Positions 3,555 through 33,710 of a DNA stretch of 41,090 nt are shown here, piece after piece. Every line of letters begins with the position of its first letter. The stretch's first letter is position 1. Source of the DNA: a virus. The translations under genes and the position numbers were made by a program. The notes below the pieces were generated by a model. It had not been told where the DNA came from and searched no databases. It saw only the letters and a list, made by a program, of their open reading frames with translations. The stretch lies in the UHGV virus genome UHGV-0314758. One strand, given 5' to 3'.

Positions 3555-3568
3555 TTACCATTTGGTAA
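3555..3568. promoter_or_regulatory. operator-like palindrome TTACC-ATTT-GGTAA (OL cluster, 4-bp spacer variant)
   Basis: Direct read of the sequence. One of three sites between the repressor gene end and the leftward operon. Confidence 0.55.
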
Positions 3569-3628
3569 ATATCAGGGGTATGAGAAAGCCACCCGGTGGT
3601 GGATTTCTGGTAATTCAACGCCCTGCTG

Positions 3629-3643
3629 TTACCGTTAAGGTAA
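3629..3643. promoter_or_regulatory. operator-like palindrome TTACCGTTAAGGTAA (OL cluster)
   Basis: Perfect TTACC-N5-GGTAA followed by TAATAAT. An extra GGTAA half-site lies at 3609-3613. Confidence 0.6.
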
Positions 3644-3691
3644 TAATCTGATCAATTTATGGTTGTGTCAATAGATTTGATGAGGAAAAGT

Positions 3692-3706
3692 TTACCATTT
3701 TGGTAA
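3692..3706. promoter_or_regulatory. operator-like palindrome TTACCATTTTGGTAA (OL cluster)
   Basis: Perfect TTACC-N5-GGTAA. Confidence 0.6.
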
Positions 3707-3761: not shown

Positions 3762-4343
3762 TTACTGGTTCTGGCTGACGATGAACTTGATGAAGGCGGC
3801 GATCTTGTTTTTCTCTTCCTGCGGCAGCCCGGCGTATTCATGGTGGTCATAGTCAATCAGACCAGCATTACCAGGCGGAAGGATCAGCTCATATGCATCG
3901 CGGCCGAACGCCCTGGCGATAGCCGACAGTACGCCAATGCTGGTGGAGCCTTCGCAGTTCAGGATGCGATTTACGGTCGCCTGGCCGATACCGGCCGCTT
4001 CCGAAACCTTTTTCTCTGAGTTCAGATCCGGATGCTGTCCCATCCATACACCCAGGGTAAACGCTGCCTGCTTTTCCACACTCCATTCCTGCGGGTCGAT
4101 AATCTCCGGCAGCGTCGGGGTATCTGACAGATGGTCGATATCCAGCCAGAACCGACCTTTCCCGGCGAACGACTCGATCTCGCGTGCCGCGTTGGCGCCG
4201 ATATTTTTTGTCCCTTTGCTCCACCTGTTAACGAGGTTAGCTGATTTTTTGATTCTCTCGGCAAACCGGAGTTGCGTGTTATCGAAATCCTTCCGGATTA
4301 TCTCATTGAGGTTGTCGCGTCTTATGTCGTAGATGCTTTTCAT
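3762..4343 (-). CDS. CI-like prophage repressor with two XRE-type HTH domains and no S24 peptidase domain
   Basis: 193 aa. HTH 1 is ...LRFAERIKKSANLVNRWSKG... and HTH 2 is ...VSEAAGIGQATVNRILNCEGSTSIGVLSAIARAFG.... There is no Ala-Gly/Ser-Lys autocleavage module. It is divergent from a cro-like gene and flanked by operator clusters. The start has no SD, as for a PRM-type leaderless transcript. Confidence 0.7.
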   Translation of the reverse strand: MKSIYDIRRDNLNEIIRKDFDNTQLRFAERIKKSANLVNRWSKGTKNIGANAAREIESFAGKGRFWLDIDHLSDTPTLPEIIDPQEWSVEKQAAFTLGVWMGQHPDLNSEKKVSEAAGIGQATVNRILNCEGSTSIGVLSAIARAFGRDAYELILPPGNAGLIDYDHHEYAGLPQEEKNKIAAFIKFIVSQNQ

Positions 4344-4396: not shown

Positions 4397-4411
4397 TTAC
4401 CATAAAGGTAA
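4397..4411. promoter_or_regulatory. operator-like palindrome TTACCATAAAGGTAA (OR cluster)
   Basis: Perfect palindrome within the repressor/cro divergent region. Confidence 0.6.
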
Positions 4412-4413
4412 AC

Positions 4414-4428
4414 TTACCAAAAAGGTAA
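4414..4428. promoter_or_regulatory. operator-like palindrome TTACCAAAAAGGTAA (OR cluster)
   Basis: Perfect palindrome, 17 bp centre-to-centre from the previous site. Confidence 0.6.
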
Positions 4429-6673: not shown

Positions 6674-6688
6674 TTACCAAAAGGGTAA
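6674..6688. promoter_or_regulatory. operator-like palindrome TTACCAAAAGGGTAA
   Basis: Perfect palindrome, 6 nt upstream of a 16-codon mini-ORF (6695-6745, MRKTIDIDPFMVINYQ). Confidence 0.5.
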
Positions 6689-6735
6689 TAAAATATGCGC
6701 AAGACTATTGATATTGATCCGTTTATGGTTATAAA

Positions 6736-6750
6736 TTACCAATAAGGTAA
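6736..6750. promoter_or_regulatory. operator-like palindrome TTACCAATAAGGTAA
   Basis: Perfect palindrome, 5 nt upstream of ATG 6756. The GGTAA half probably doubles as the SD. Confidence 0.5.
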
Positions 6751-9952: not shown

Positions 9953-9972
9953 TACTGTTTAAATATACAGTA
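9953..9972 (+). promoter_or_regulatory. LexA (SOS) box TACTGTTTAAATATACAGTA
   Basis: Matches the CTGT-N8-ACAG consensus with both half-sites intact. Lies 17 nt upstream of ATG 9990 and just downstream of a TTGACT -35-like hexamer at 9930-9935. Confidence 0.7.
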
Positions 9973-9989: not shown

Positions 9990-10247
9990 ATGGGTGGCAA
10001 AGACCGTAATTATACTGTCGTTTACCGCGGGGATTTTATCGACGCCGTACCTGATGGCCGATGGATGATGATCCAGCGTGGCAAGGAGTACGGCGGCGGC
10101 TACTGGTTTGGTCGAGCTTATGCCGACTGCTTCTGGCTTGAGTTTGAGCGGCCAATGCCTCTATCAAGCTGTGTTGAGTACGTCGTGCTATACGACCATG
10201 TCGCTGCCAGAGCTCATGAGTTTGAGGATGAATTTAAACTGGAATGA
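9990..10247 (+). CDS. small SOS-regulated protein (candidate antirepressor/induction factor)
   Basis: 85 aa (MGGKDRNYTVVYRGDFIDAVPDGRWMMIQRGKEYGGGYWF...), RBS AGGGGTGAA. It lies directly downstream of the LexA box and is followed by a rho-independent terminator. Confidence 0.5.
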   Translation: MGGKDRNYTVVYRGDFIDAVPDGRWMMIQRGKEYGGGYWFGRAYADCFWLEFERPMPLSSCVEYVVLYDHVAARAHEFEDEFKLE

Positions 10248-10289: not shown

Positions 10290-10304
10290 TTACCTAAAAG
10301 GTAA
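10290..10304. promoter_or_regulatory. operator-like palindrome TTACCTAAAAGGTAA upstream of the late operon
   Basis: Perfect palindrome 20 nt upstream of the terminase small subunit start, immediately after the terminator. Confidence 0.5.
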
Positions 10305-13068: not shown

Positions 13069-13145
13069 TGGTGCAGCATGCAGGATTCGAACCTGCGACC
13101 AACCGCTTAGAAGGCGGTTGCTCTATCCTACTGAGCTAATGCCAC
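13069..13145 (-). tRNA. tRNA-Arg (anticodon UCU)
   Basis: Minus-strand sequence GTGGCAT-TA-GCTCAGTAGGATAGAGC-A-ACCGC-CTTCTAA-GCGGT-TGGTC-GCAGGTTCGAATCCTGC-ATGCTGC-A-CCA. It has a standard cloverleaf, a TCT anticodon and an encoded CCA. The acceptor stem carries two G-U pairs. Confidence 0.8.
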
Positions 13146-13460: not shown

Positions 13461-13475
13461 TTACCAAAAAGGTAA
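13461..13475. promoter_or_regulatory. operator-like palindrome TTACCAAAAAGGTAA (divergent late/moron promoter region)
   Basis: Perfect palindrome followed by TAATTT. It is preceded by TTGTGT, which could serve as a -35. Confidence 0.5.
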
Positions 13476-29966: not shown

Positions 29967-31162
<1,196 letters not shown>

Positions 31163-31176: not shown

Positions 31177-31737
31177 ATGAAGAAAATTATATTTTTTGTT
31201 TCAATAATGATGTCTGCATTTTCTTTTGCAGGGCAAAATGTCAAATGCGAACTTAAATACTTTGGGGATAGCGATAAATTCAAGGTAACTGAGTTTTCTT
31301 TTATGGGGATTCCATCTGATTCATACCTTTATACCTGTGCAGACTGTGGAGATATCCAGATAAACGTGTTCCCATCTATTCAGTCTGTCGCTTCCTACTC
31401 ATTTGAAAACAACATTGATTTTGAAAGGAAAATCAATGCTGAATACAACAGGAAAGACATAGCTAAACTTGAAATGGAAAATGTTACTCAAGGTGGGAGA
31501 ATAAATTACTCAATCACCGATACTGGTTTGGCAGAGTTCTACCCAGAAGGCAAAAAAACAAGTTACCTATACTTTTTAGCAAAGCAAAAAAAAGGTAAAG
31601 AACAAGTAGGTTATTCAGGATTTGTTACTTCTAACGGTGATAAGTCATGCTCAATTATTGCGACATATCCAGGAAAAGAAATATCTTCTCAGGGAAGTAA
31701 ATCGCTAAGCTACTTTATGAACCATATCTCAATGTAG
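31177..31737 (+). CDS. AT-rich moron: secreted protein with signal peptide
   Basis: 186 aa. MKKIIFFVSIMMSAFSFAGQ is a Sec signal. The GC content is far below the phage average. It originally abutted the stop of the upstream virion gene as TAATAATG and is now separated from it by IS5. Confidence 0.55.
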   Translation: MKKIIFFVSIMMSAFSFAGQNVKCELKYFGDSDKFKVTEFSFMGIPSDSYLYTCADCGDIQINVFPSIQSVASYSFENNIDFERKINAEYNRKDIAKLEMENVTQGGRINYSITDTGLAEFYPEGKKTSYLYFLAKQKKGKEQVGYSGFVTSNGDKSCSIIATYPGKEISSQGSKSLSYFMNHISM

Positions 31738-31762: not shown

Positions 31763-31786
31763 TAAAAAGCCCGCTATGCGGGCTAT
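31763..31786 (-). terminator. rho-independent terminator for hicBA
   Basis: On the minus strand: AGCCCGC-ATA-GCGGGCT followed by TTTTTAAT, directly after the hicA stop. Confidence 0.55.
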
Positions 31787-31983
31787 TAAAAATACTTATC
31801 TAAACCAGCGTCTTTCAATATGTTATTTGCTGTGTGTTTCGATTTCACAGTAAACGGAACAGAAAAATTCCTTGATGACAATGGACTATACCATATCTCA
31901 TGACTGCCTTTTCCTTGCCTTACAAAATAACAATTTGCAGACTTAAGGATATCAACGAGCCTGGGGTATAGTCCTGTACCCAT
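31786..31983 (-). CDS. hicA: HicA-family mRNA interferase toxin
   Basis: 65 aa (...FVRQGKGSHEIWYSP...NILKDAGL...) with the conserved G-S-H motif of HicA/YcfA. Confidence 0.7.
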   Translation of the reverse strand: MGTGLYPRLVDILKSANCYFVRQGKGSHEIWYSPLSSRNFSVPFTVKSKHTANNILKDAGLDKYF

Positions 31984-31986
31984 ACA

Positions 31987-32244
31987 CTACAGTGCCATTC
32001 TGTCAGTGAAGTTCTGTTCCTGAATGAAGGATAAATGCAGCCGTTTGAGGTTGCCTTTGTATCCGTTCATTTCATATAGCTCAGGAGCTATCTCCCACAC
32101 TCTTTCGGTAAGATCTTCGTAAGAGTCAGCTTCAGTGGAGAGCCCAAGATCTTCACAGTATGCCACCCATACATTCTCTTCTGTATCGTGACACACGTTT
32201 ACTTTGAAAAGGCTCGAGAATTTCAACACATCATCAGTTCTCAT
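31987..32244 (-). CDS. hicB: HicB-family antitoxin (short form, N-terminal domain only)
   Basis: ATG 32244 with a perfect AGGAGG RBS. ...NVWVAYCEDLGLSTEADSYEDLTERVWEIAPELYEM... matches the HicB/UPF0150 N-terminal fold. The ORF track's 32292 start is an unsupported extension. Confidence 0.55.
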   Translation of the reverse strand: MRTDDVLKFSSLFKVNVCHDTEENVWVAYCEDLGLSTEADSYEDLTERVWEIAPELYEMNGYKGNLKRLHLSFIQEQNFTDRMAL

Positions 32245-32258
32245 AGTCGCCTCCTGTT

Positions 32259-32273
32259 TTACCTTATTGGTAA
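32259..32273. promoter_or_regulatory. operator-like palindrome TTACCTTATTGGTAA at +1 of the hicBA promoter
   Basis: Minus-strand promoter: -35 TTGACG (32300..32295), 16-bp spacer, -10 TAGTAT (32278..32273). The palindrome lies immediately downstream of the -10, and the AGGAGG RBS follows it. Confidence 0.55.
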
Positions 32274-32336
32274 TACTAAGCCACCCATGCAATCCGTCAA
32301 GAATTATTTTAAAAGCGCTTCCCTGCGCCAGCAGCC

Positions 32337-33041
32337 TCAGTAACCCTTGGCCTTAGCCACCACGTACTGTGCGTGCGTCTCTATGTCGCGCAGTACGGCG
32401 CCGATACCAACAATGTAGCTGAGCATGGCCGTGACCTCTGCGGCGGCGCCGGATACATCATGCCCGTCAGCATCGAGTTCCCGGAGCAGCTTCATTACCA
32501 TTGAGCTTTTGGCCAGTTCACGCAGGCCATCAGGTGAATGGATATGATCCTGATAGCGTCGGTTAAGAGGGAAGGTGTAATGCTTCTGCTCGACCTGCAA
32601 TGCATCCATGATCGCCGGCAACATGCTGCTGGTCATCTCCTGCGCCAGCATGCGGGCTTTATCAGTCTGGGAGAGTTCTTCCCGAACGTAGCGGCCAGTC
32701 TTGCGGATCTGCGGCAGCACCTCGCTGGTTACCCATTTGCGGAAGCGGTAGGGTATAGACCCTTTTTTGGTAGCATCACGGCAGCGTAATATCATAGTGT
32801 AAAGGCCTGGTTCAGATATCACACTCAGGCTTTGAGGCCCAATTCCAGGCTGACTGTCGGTTAAACCGACGGTATCTTTTTCATCATCATCAAGCTTGAG
32901 AAGAGCATCGCGGTTGTTAGAAATTCCCAATGCATTACACACATCAATAGCAACAAACCATGGCTCACCGTTAATGGTAAATGTGCGAATTTTAACCGTA
33001 GAGTCGAAAGAGAAAATAGACAGTGCATTTTGTGCAGTCAT
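32337..33041 (-). CDS. Bro-N domain antirepressor
   Basis: ATG 33041 with an AAAGGTG RBS. MTAQNALSIFSFDSTVKIRTFTINGEPWFVAIDVCNALGISNNRDA... matches a Bro-N domain. The C-terminal roughly 75 aa are paralogous to the 33361..33621 product. Confidence 0.7.
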   Translation of the reverse strand: MTAQNALSIFSFDSTVKIRTFTINGEPWFVAIDVCNALGISNNRDALLKLDDDEKDTVGLTDSQPGIGPQSLSVISEPGLYTMILRCRDATKKGSIPYRFRKWVTSEVLPQIRKTGRYVREELSQTDKARMLAQEMTSSMLPAIMDALQVEQKHYTFPLNRRYQDHIHSPDGLRELAKSSMVMKLLRELDADGHDVSGAAAEVTAMLSYIVGIGAVLRDIETHAQYVVAKAKGY

Positions 33042-33200
33042 AGTGATCACCTTTGTAGTTAGGTTAATCACCACCGGAGGTTCCAATCTCTGAGGTGGTG
33101 AGACGTACAGGGTTGGAACTACCGGCTACAAAGGACCCGGCGCACCTTTCGGTGCCCCTGCACGCCCCACCATAATTCGAATGTGGCCGTGCTGAACGCA

Positions 33201-33221
33201 TAAAAAAACCGCTTACGCGGT
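33201..33221 (-). terminator. rho-independent terminator (minus strand)
   Basis: Minus strand ACCGC-GTAA-GCGGT followed by TTTTTTT. It lies between the small SOS gene and the Bro-N gene. Confidence 0.5.
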
Positions 33222-33313
33222 AAAGCGCCTCTGTAGTCATCCGGGGTTCCAATCCCGGCACCGGATTTTGCCGATGCCCGATCACTATGGCACAATGGGA
33301 ATGGGTTGTAAAT

Positions 33314-33328
33314 TTACCATTTTGGTAA
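33314..33328. promoter_or_regulatory. operator-like palindrome TTACCATTTTGGTAA
   Basis: Perfect palindrome flanked by TTGTAA (-35-like, 33306-33311) and TAATAA (33329-33334). Confidence 0.5.
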
Positions 33329-33360
33329 TAATAAACCCATCGTTATTTTGATTTCAATCA

Positions 33361-33621
33361 CTATCTGAGTTGCTGCCGCAACTGCATCGCGCAGAAATCC
33401 AGATGCGTTTGCAGCTCCCGCATCGACAACTGCGAGCTTGTCACATAGTTAACCAGTGCCACCAGTTCCGCCGCCGCACCGCTGACATCGTGGCCGTCTC
33501 GCTCCATCTCCCTGAGCAACTCCATCAGCTGTGATTTTACAACCAGGGATCTGACCCCTTCCGGGGTGTGAATACGATCCGCAAAACCTTCGTCGACAGG
33601 ATACTGGTACCGCTCTGGCAT
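33361..33621 (-). CDS. small protein paralogous to the antirepressor C-terminal domain; SOS-regulated candidate antirepressor
   Basis: ATG 33621 with a GGAG RBS. MPERYQYPVDEGFADRIHTPEGVRSLVVKSQLMELLREMERDGHDVSGAAAELVALVNYV aligns with the Bro-N protein C-terminus (RRYQDHIHSPDGLRELAKSSMVMKLLRELDADGHDVSGAAAEVTAMLSYIV). A LexA box lies 19 nt upstream. Confidence 0.55.
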   Translation of the reverse strand: MPERYQYPVDEGFADRIHTPEGVRSLVVKSQLMELLREMERDGHDVSGAAAELVALVNYVTSSQLSMRELQTHLDFCAMQLRQQLR

Positions 33622-33639
33622 TAGGAATACTCCCATAAA

Positions 33640-33659
33640 TACTGTATATATATACATAT
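33640..33659 (-). promoter_or_regulatory. LexA (SOS) box TACTGTATATATATACATAT
   Basis: CTGT-N8 (ATATATAT)-ACAT, a 17/20 match to TACTGTATATATATACAGTA. Lies immediately upstream of the 33621 start. Confidence 0.6.
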
Positions 33660-33695
33660 ATCAAAACGTAACAAAGTTTTCCAGAGCTCTTTTGT

Positions 33696-33710
33696 TTACC
33701 TTAATGGTAA
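33696..33710. promoter_or_regulatory. operator-like palindrome TTACCTTAATGGTAA
   Basis: Perfect palindrome in the divergent region between the SOS-regulated small gene and the tailspike. Confidence 0.5.

Follow-up and report, generated by a model that had tools for sequence, protein, structure and literature searches.

The repressor (Rep) of Salmonella phage SPC32H is reportedly not cleaved but inactivated by a small antirepressor protein (Ant), the SPC32H ant promoter is said to be repressed by LexA, and a single mutation in the LexA box of phage SPC32N is said to make Ant synthesis constitutive; SPC32H Ant was reportedly described as a distinct antirepressor class. This account is consistent with a review that traces Ant synthesis in such phages to LexA self-cleavage (PMC7380047), with a summary of the tetramer behavior of Rep and Ant in which SPC32H Ant is a tetramer (PMC9638917), and with the records of the two phages, which differ by 1 nucleotide (nt) inside the box (ACAG in SPC32H, AAAG in SPC32N). 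Here, we describe a locus in a stretch of 41,090 nt of viral DNA (UHGV virus genome UHGV-0314758, referred to below as the window) in which an orthologue of SPC32H ant stands next to a gene for a Bro-N protein that ends in the same domain. LexA-controlled antirepressors are also on record for phage 186 (Tum) and the Gifsy phages (Shearwin 1998 and Lemire 2011, as cited in PMC7380047); they share with the window system the logic of a repressor that is not cleavable and is inactivated by a small protein under SOS induction, along with possible cross-talk between prophages, and no sequence relationship is expected.

A second kind of system places the antirepressor gene under the control of an antisense RNA. 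In the immI operon of phages P1 and P7, loops a and b of the C4 RNA pair with sequences a' and b' over a ribosome binding site (RBS), copies of a' and b' lie on both sides of c4, the specificity classes differ by few loop bases, and an operator for the main repressor is found at the operon promoter. The order of this operon is c4-icd-ant (Citron & Schuster 1990, as cited in PMC7313666). For the isrK-orf45 (STnc1160)-anrP locus of Gifsy-1, read-through of the IsrK terminator and trans-activation of anrP translation were shown (Hershko-Shalev et al. 2016, PMC4825925), and a c4/isrK/Bro-N gene arrangement was described in the APSE phages (Rouil et al. 2020, PMC7313666). In phage vB_EcoP_ZX5 (ZX5), overexpression of open reading frame (ORF) 4 promoted the lytic state and lowered the numbers of prophages or lysogens about 1000-fold (Pathogens 2022, PMC9782041).

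The window is an epsilon15/phiV10-like prophage, and the region studied shares 72 to 94% identity with prophage-like phages of Klebsiella and with Uetakeviruses of the phiV10 type. On the minus strand, from 33710 down to 32337, it presents a palindrome, a LexA-like box, an RBS, an ORF of 86 amino acids (aa), a second palindrome, a predicted promoter, an IsrK RNA, a C4 RNA, a leader, and the Bro-N gene (Table 1). We read this order, with a probability of about 0.72, as two adjacent, separable antirepressor units that carry the same Rep-binding domain and respond each to a different signal: unit 1 (33361-33710) would be an SOS-gated induction switch of the SPC32H type, and unit 2 (32337-33328) a module of the P1-immI/Gifsy-1 isrK-anrP type. 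Homologies, positions, motif statistics, and RNA covariation were computed on the sequences, and from these we infer the binding of LexA and Rep, promoter use, the identity of the Rep bound by the fused domain, and timing. An initial annotation made from the letters of the window had listed box, small gene, operator palindrome, terminator, and Bro-N gene; all of them are present where it had placed them, far beyond chance, and its order was correct, but it had overlooked the IsrK and C4 RNAs.

RESULTS

An SPC32H-type Ant and its probable repressor target

The product of the small gene matched chain E of PDB entry 5D50 ("Anti-repressor protein" of SPC32H; phmmer, E=2.5e-33, residues 2-84), with homology over the full length (about 86 aa) of SPC32H Ant, and shared 65% identity (tblastn) with the gene annotated as ant in SPC32H and in SPC32N. 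The ant and tailspike genes are divergent, and the gene order tailspike/ant is common to the window and SPC32H, where the gene is annotated ant. Small Ant also matched PHROG 450, labelled "unknown function," and no Pfam or NCBIfam model was found to cover its domain. Translation is predicted to start at ATG 33621, with a GGGAG RBS 8 nt upstream, and the stop codon lies at 33361-33363; the gene reported initially as encoding 87 aa is thus present, with a true coding sequence of 86 aa. An alternative 98-aa start (ATG 33657) was rejected: this ATG falls within the LexA-like box, nothing in SPC32H Ant corresponds to it, and both the SPC32H structure and the RBS indicate the start at 33621. Public annotations of the closest homologues (e.g., P0001 and P0002, Klebsiella pneumoniae) give 98 aa, which corresponds to this in-frame ATG within the box.

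The same phage encodes a 193-aa SPC32H-type Rep, on which both Ant-domain proteins probably act. Its ORF matched chain A ("Repressor") of 5D50 (E=4.4e-76), the domain search of Rep returned HTH_3 only, with no S24 peptidase (autocleavage) domain, and rep is flanked by two palindrome clusters (3556-3706 and 4397-4428). With an orthologue of SPC32H Ant, a box at the orthologous position (see below), and a non-S24 Rep in one genome, the small protein is very probably the actual SOS-triggered antirepressor, as had been proposed initially. This role is published biology and not a new deduction of ours.

The Bro-N protein ends in a second copy of the Ant domain

In the 234-aa Bro-N protein, the Bro-N domain (PF02498) occupied residues 17 to 110 (32712-32993; E=3.8e-20, 72.7 bits versus a cutoff of 25.6), and residues 152 to 229 (32355-32588) matched 5D50 chain E (E=7.5e-16), in agreement with the earlier claim that the repressor-binding module is encoded twice. 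The protein as a whole matched PHROG 130 ("anti-repressor Ant") and PHROG 450. A pairwise comparison reproduced the residue-by-residue alignment proposed for the small protein and the Bro-N C-terminus, small Ant being 39% identical to residues 153 to 232 of the Bro-N protein over 80 aa without gaps (E=7e-24), and tblastn found exactly two copies of the Ant domain in the window. The Bro-N protein is 56% identical to ORF4 of ZX5. It was also considered as an orthologue of Gifsy-1 AnrP and rejected as such, since the two proteins have no similarity and the head of AnrP is ORF6N.

Identity between the paralogues was 37 to 50% in every phage, with no excess within phages, and the DNA of the two window copies was 50% identical, with a longest shared run of 5 nt. 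The split is therefore old, and a recent duplication or gene conversion in the window phage was rejected on the same figures. SPC32H and epsilon15 carry the small gene only, without the Bro-N unit, and both units are found in phiV10, TL-2011b, Tyrion, ZX5, several Klebsiella phages, and many metagenomic or genomic contigs. Because some phages have genes between the units (hicAB in Klebsiella phage ST512-KPC3phi13.3, a reverse-strand gene in TL-2011b) and because SPC32H and epsilon15 have unit 1 only, the units are separable modules.

Domain architectures were taken from an exhaustive profile hidden Markov model search of 1.84 billion proteins; a word-indexed search gave mostly fragments and split ORFs. 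The Ant-domain family comprised 65 clusters, most of them of stand-alone domains, and in about ten clusters the domain formed the C-terminus of larger proteins, behind N-terminal heads of the Bro-N, AntA, Phage_pRha, or ORF6N type. Since several classic antirepressor heads carry this same domain, and since the pair itself recurs in the four named phages with both units and in many Klebsiella prophages, the modular split reflects a shuffling of heads that is classic among antirepressors and is not unusual, contrary to what had been suggested.

Two natural chimeras (P0035 and P0114) consist of a small-Ant N-half and a Bro-N-type C-half, joined at the DGHDVSGAAAE motif that both types share. On the chimera contigs, the LexA-like box drives the chimeric gene (1907-2161 in L008, 1371-1625 in both L009 and L010) and the hicB-like promoter follows directly, the recombination between the paralogues having deleted isrK, C4, and the Bro-N head. 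In phiV10 (L001, 3334-4013), a frameshift within the Ant-like domain breaks the Bro-N gene in two, such that PhiV10p23 (194 aa) and PhiV10p22 (29 aa) together encode the segment DGHDVSGAAAE...THAEY; this copy is either defective or affected by a sequencing error. A third tblastn match to the Ant domain was seen in TL-2011b (L004) and HEMP4, and in TL-2011b a gene annotated "anti-repressor Ant" lies slightly downstream on the opposite strand (L004, 6774-7246).

By analogy, the fused Bro-N protein is expected to be an antirepressor. Its shared domain might instead serve mainly for oligomerization, without binding Rep independently, such that mixed tetramers with small Ant would modulate, and possibly damp, antirepression. 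The tetrameric state of SPC32H Ant (PMC9638917), the residues invariant in both paralogue groups, which are spread along the whole domain, and the expected presence of both proteins after induction would all suit such a role, but the ZX5 orthologue promoted the lytic state when overexpressed alone (PMC9782041), and the presence of the domain behind four distinct classic antirepressor heads is more in keeping with an effector. We consider oligomerization as the main function very unlikely and retain the reading of the fused domain as a Rep-binding one.

A conserved LexA-like box upstream of ant

The sequence upstream of ant matches the consensus TACTG(TA)5CAGTA at the same coordinates and with the same score as in the initial annotation; with at most 3 mismatches allowed, shuffled sequences gave an expectation of 0.00 matches, and the window contains only 2. 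In an alignment of the ant upstream regions of SPC32H, SPC32N, epsilon15, phiV10, TL-2011b, Tyrion, and one Klebsiella phage, the box coincided exactly with that of SPC32H (TACTGTATGTTTATACAGTG), with equal spacing to the start codon and to the upstream palindrome. The SPC32H box at this orthologous position is one that we take to be a validated LexA operator. All relatives from Escherichia coli, Salmonella, and Enterobacter had the canonical CTGT-N8-ACAG motif, versus ATGT-N8-ACAG in the window and the Klebsiella-type clade.

Boxes were scored with an approximate position weight matrix (PWM) built from E. coli boxes. The window ant box reached 19.1 bits (rank 2 in the window), the boxes of its relatives mostly 25 to 28 bits (22.3 in Tyrion), and functional E. 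coli boxes 12.5 to 26.6 bits; the next-best window site after the ant box scored 10.8 bits. The box is thus predicted to be weaker than those of the relatives. The best site in the window, with 27.0 bits, was a canonical LexA box at 9953-9972 (TACTGTTTAAATATACAGTA), which overlaps a TTGACT/TATACT promoter and is followed by an 85-aa ORF (9990-10247; PHROG 2100, unknown function, as its only match, and no Pfam match) and then by a Rep-type palindrome at 10290. This ORF is a putative second SOS-controlled phage gene.

Several of these data weigh against straightforward SOS control of ant. The strict CTGT-N8-ACAG motif is absent, since the left half-site on the minus strand of ATATGTATATATATACAGTA is ATGT; the score is close to the 18.4 bits of the SPC32N mutant box, so that LexA control of ant may be weak or modified here; and no ant promoter passed a simple consensus promoter scan. 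The ATGT half-site lowers the claim to a canonical SOS box, and LexA binding remains compatible with it. These points could also mean that the Klebsiella-type box is mainly a promoter element, ineffective as a LexA operator, with ant held off chiefly by Rep or another factor and induction not classically gated by SOS and LexA. The loss of the C of the critical CTG, the score roughly equal to that of an operator mutant, several -10-like hexamers seen by eye in the (TA)n run, and the Rep operator conserved 35 nt upstream are in line with this alternative, which we nevertheless find unlikely: the right half-site and spacer are perfect, 19.1 bits is within the range of the functional E. coli boxes, the position is exactly orthologous to that of the SPC32H LexA operator, and the canonical box at 9953-9972 points to the use of SOS control by this phage. 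The 20-mer was invariant in three Klebsiella-type lineages whose Ant proteins were 72 to 100% identical and whose flanks had diverged; such constancy would suit a promoter and a protein-binding site equally, and, because the flanks diverged around it, the ATGT form is selected and not a product of decay. We conclude that the box is a genuine operator-like site, probably bound by LexA and of uncertain strength. For the SOS control assigned initially to the small gene, the orthologous and conserved position of the box speaks in favor, and its ATGT half-site and a predicted strength lower than in the relatives speak against.

Palindromes as candidate Rep operators

Exact TTACC-N5-GGTAA palindromes occur 11 times in the window, versus 0 expected, at 3556-3706, 4397-4428, 6674-6750, 10290, 13461, 32259, 33314, and 33696, in addition to an N4 variant. 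They are paired around rep and single before several transcription units, including ant, isrK, and the hicB-like gene. The palindrome upstream of ant has positional counterparts in SPC32H, epsilon15, phiV10, Tyrion, and Klebsiella phages, although it is imperfect in phiV10 and TL-2011b (TTACCTTTCAGGTGA), and in the record of epsilon15 it is labelled as binding the repressor. On the basis of this conserved position and the epsilon15 annotation, TTACC-N5-GGTAA is most likely the Rep operator, and the palindromes probably outline the whole Rep regulon. The operator palindrome that had been noted between ant and the terminator is one of the 11 exact sites (33314-33328). It was also considered as an intrinsic terminator of ant and rejected as such, as it lacks a U-run and was negative in the terminator scan. 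Sites 33314 and 33696 bracket ant at a distance of 382 bp, and looping by a Rep tetramer could be possible.

At the isrK promoter (PisrK), the palindrome spans about -51 to -37, centered near -44, and the GGTAA-AT-TTACA arrangement is kept in the ST512-KPC3phi13.3 (L002), TL-2011b (L004), and L007 loci. From this position, Rep would likely repress PisrK; activation is also compatible with it and counts against unit 2 being silenced by Rep.

IsrK and C4 RNAs precede the Bro-N gene

The -10 element of PisrK ends 7 nt before the first base of the match to IsrK, which scored 79.3 bits for RF01394 (gathering score, 50) and ends in a predicted intrinsic terminator (stem 33208-33221 followed by U7). 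C4 scored 79.4 bits for RF01695 (gathering score, 45) and covered the full model (1-87). Its loop a (33113-33119, GUUCCAA) is complementary to a' in the 50-nt Bro-N leader, and its loop b (33126-33134, CCUUUGUAG) to b' (CUACAAAGG), which contains the Shine-Dalgarno sequence (AAGG) of the Bro-N gene; a second a'/b' copy complementary to the C4 loops is present in IsrK (33246-33252 and 33228-33236, respectively). Both RNAs exceeded the Rfam gathering thresholds in the window and 11 related loci, and the isrK/C4 cassette was found in 173 phage records. The terminator that had been thought to insulate the Bro-N gene is therefore the 3' end of IsrK, within a Bro-N operon that has its own predicted promoter, candidate Rep operator, IsrK, and C4.

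Pairing and covariation statistics were obtained from ten loci, with slid alignments as controls. C4 and leader were 90.5% paired (27 to 53% in the slid controls), with 13 double-sided changes, and none of 500 shuffles scored as high; helix a contained three covarying columns (CG/GC/UA and others). IsrK and C4 were 96.8% paired (32 to 48% in the controls), with 6 pairs changed on both sides, and helix a was 100% paired with 3 covarying columns. Changes in the variable triplet of loop a are matched in each of the two target copies (GTT/AAC, ACG/CGT, and AGA/TCT), and loop b shows compensating changes that include a 1-nt indel. Cognate C4 duplexes were more stable than most non-cognate ones, but the specificity matrix of duplex energies was only partly clean, the Tyrion leader binding all C4s well, and column covariation was preferred over the energies for this reason. 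By these predicted pairings, the Bro-N gene is a riboregulated antirepressor operon of the P1-immI/Gifsy-1 isrK-anrP type. One point speaks against a full match to these models: inspection found no conserved icd/orf45-like coupling ORF ending at the Bro-N start, and the AUG at the 5' end of C4 opens, by eye, a frame of only 15 codons that ends inside C4.

At least three loop-a specificity classes of C4/IsrK (GTT, ACG, and AGA) were distinguished in the window and loci L001 to L018, with extra loop-b variants in L013 and L018, and these classes are shuffled relative to the Ant and Bro-N protein types. Their pattern suggests P1/P7-like heteroimmunity groups among epsilon15-like prophages.

The same arrangement allows another view of unit 2, in which the fused protein is mainly a feed-forward amplifier acting on the resident Rep and not a trans-acting or infection-time factor. 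Small Ant would clear Rep from PisrK, a burst of IsrK and read-through transcripts would overwhelm C4, and the second antirepressor would lock the lytic state. This would fit the Rep operator abutting the PisrK -35 element and the stronger predicted binding of C4 by IsrK than by the leader (duplex energies of about -40 and about -27 kcal/mol, respectively). The terminator scan found none between the ant stop codon and isrK, and SOS-driven ant transcripts could enter isrK; this read-through coupling is, however, not conserved, other genes and terminators parting ant from isrK in ST512-KPC3phi13.3 and TL-2011b. The chimeras hint that both C-halves are interchangeable against the same Rep, but they may be non-functional, and the paralogues, at 37 to 50% identity, do not covary within phages. 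As SPC32H and epsilon15 induce with unit 1 alone, we regard the amplifier as possible but doubtful.

Neighboring features of the window

Directly downstream of the Bro-N gene lies a pair of genes for a HicA toxin (PF07927) and a DUF1902 HicB-like protein (31786-32300), whose promoter (TTGACG-16-TAGTAT) is overlapped by the Rep-type palindrome at 32259-32273. In ST512-KPC3phi13.3, the hic module is located between ant and isrK instead (L002, 2588-3050). An ORF that by eye resembles the IS5 transposase InsH separates the last virion gene from the accessory region, beside an ORF of 186 aa whose N-terminus is signal-peptide-like and which has no Pfam match (30114-31094, 31177-31737). A tRNA gene (Rfam tRNA, 68.6 bits) is located inside the prophage on the minus strand (13072-13145), near the Rep-type palindrome at 13461.

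Table 1. Coordinates of the features of the two antirepressor units and of rep in the window
Feature	Coordinates	Strand	Basis or remark
Candidate Rep operator TTACCTTAATGGTAA	33696..33710	.	About 35 nt upstream of LexA-like box, between ant and tailspike
LexA-like (SOS) box ATATGTATATATATACAGTA, overlapping ant promoter region	33640..33659	-	17/20 to consensus
ant, 86-aa small antirepressor, SPC32H Ant orthologue	33361..33621 (stop codon included)	-	Homology
Candidate Rep operator TTACCATTTTGGTAA	33314..33328	.	Abuts isrK promoter -35; "operator palindrome" of the initial annotation
Predicted sigma-70 promoter of isrK-C4-BroN operon (TTTACA, 17 nt, TG-CATAGT; TTTACA-17-TGCATAGT)	33284..33312	-	Consensus scan
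IsrK-family small RNA (sRNA) with intrinsic terminator	33202..33277	-	Rfam RF01394
C4-family antisense RNA	33091..33177	-	Rfam RF01695
Bro-N gene leader with C4 targets	33050..33086	-	a' UUGGAAC 33080-33086; b' CUACAAAGG 33050-33058
Bro-N::Ant-like protein, 234 aa	32337..33041	-	Pfam Bro-N plus SPC32H-Ant-like domain
rep, 193-aa repressor, probable target of both Ant-domain proteins	3762..4343	-	Homology

DISCUSSION

In the model that we favor, LexA would occupy the box in the ant promoter until DNA damage removes it. The 86-aa Ant would then be made, bind the non-cleavable Rep, and dismantle the DNA-bound Rep tetramer, by which the lytic genes would be turned on. In unit 2, the promoter beside the Rep operator would transcribe IsrK, most transcripts ending at the IsrK terminator and read-through transcripts extending over C4 and the gene for the Bro-N::Ant-like protein. 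Loops a and b of C4 would pair with a' and b' of the leader and cover the Shine-Dalgarno sequence, leaving the fused antirepressor untranslated, and the second a'/b' copy in IsrK could titrate C4. Rep at the promoter and C4 at the RBS would thus both silence unit 2, and the fused protein would be expected when Rep, C4, or both are absent or outnumbered, that is, when the phage enters a naive or heteroimmune cell or once Rep is inactivated.

Unit 1 resembles the Rep-Ant-LexA switch of SPC32H (Kim & Ryu 2013 J Virol; Kim et al. 2016 PNAS; PDB 5D50/5D4Z) in its Ant and Rep orthologues, the position on the tailspike side, the distance of the box, and the palindrome about 35 nt upstream. It differs in the ATGT half of the box (19 versus 25 bits), and SPC32H has a single Ant-domain gene and lacks isrK, C4, and the Bro-N unit. 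As in P1/P7 immI, a C4-family RNA (RF01695) in unit 2 is predicted to be co-transcribed upstream of the antirepressor gene, and its loops, the a'/b' copies on both sides, loop classes that differ by few bases, and the Rep operator at the promoter are all alike. In contrast to immI, unit 2 has no icd-like coupling ORF, its C4 would act directly on the antirepressor gene by covering that gene's Shine-Dalgarno sequence, the a'/b' copy upstream of C4 resides in a terminated sRNA, IsrK, and the effector is a Bro-N protein with an SPC32H-Ant-like domain. In the Gifsy-1 locus, an IsrK whose terminator is leaky likewise precedes a C4-like RNA and then an antirepressor gene, IsrK being complementary to the downstream RNA, and the RNA cassette of this locus is about 70% identical to that of the window at the DNA level. 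It differs in that AnrP, with its ORF6N head, is dissimilar to the window protein, the orf45 frame is not conserved in the window, and the locus adjoins antQ and not a LexA-controlled ant. The APSE phages likewise have C4 and isrK directly upstream of a Bro-N gene whose leader carries a' and b', but a small LexA-controlled Ant is not part of the arrangement described for them (PMC7313666). ZX5 is of the same phage group, and its ORF4 is a full-length orthologue of the Bro-N protein with the same neighboring small Ant; the ZX5 paper took ORF4 as the sole anti-repressor and did not mention small Ant, the LexA box, the RNAs, or the paralogy (PMC9782041).

Both units are thus already-described systems, every component belongs to one of them, and current models are not overturned; the finding is real and largely ordinary. 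A literature search found no paper on the paralogy between small Ant and the C-terminal domain of the Bro-N protein. A bolder reading, in which the Ant-domain proteins are non-redundant, free and Bro-N-tethered domains co-assembling or competing for Rep such that induction integrates two independent inputs, DNA damage by way of LexA and an RNA-based immunity state by way of IsrK/C4, is conceivable because SPC32H-type Ant works as a tetramer, but we hold it to be decidedly unlikely. Were it true, the Bro-N head would add a function, such as tethering to DNA or reach to heterologous Reps, and the ATGT box of the Klebsiella clade, weakened and yet conserved, would serve adaptively to move weight from one input to the other.

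In our preferred two-unit reading, the locus has consequences for the annotation and for the biology of these prophages. As no Pfam or NCBIfam model exists for the domain and PHROG 450 is labelled as of unknown function, the ant genes of hundreds of Klebsiella, E. coli, and Salmonella prophages, that of the window among them, are called "hypothetical," often with the wrong 98-aa start inside the operator, and in ZX5-type phages the Bro-N protein has so far been taken as the only antirepressor. The same Rep-binding domain, bare and Bro-N-headed in one genome, is a natural control for what antirepressor heads (Bro-N, AntA, Rha, and ORF6N) add. Lastly, the three C4/IsrK classes suggest that a P1/P7-like heteroimmunity operates among the epsilon15-like prophages of clinical Klebsiella and E. 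coli.

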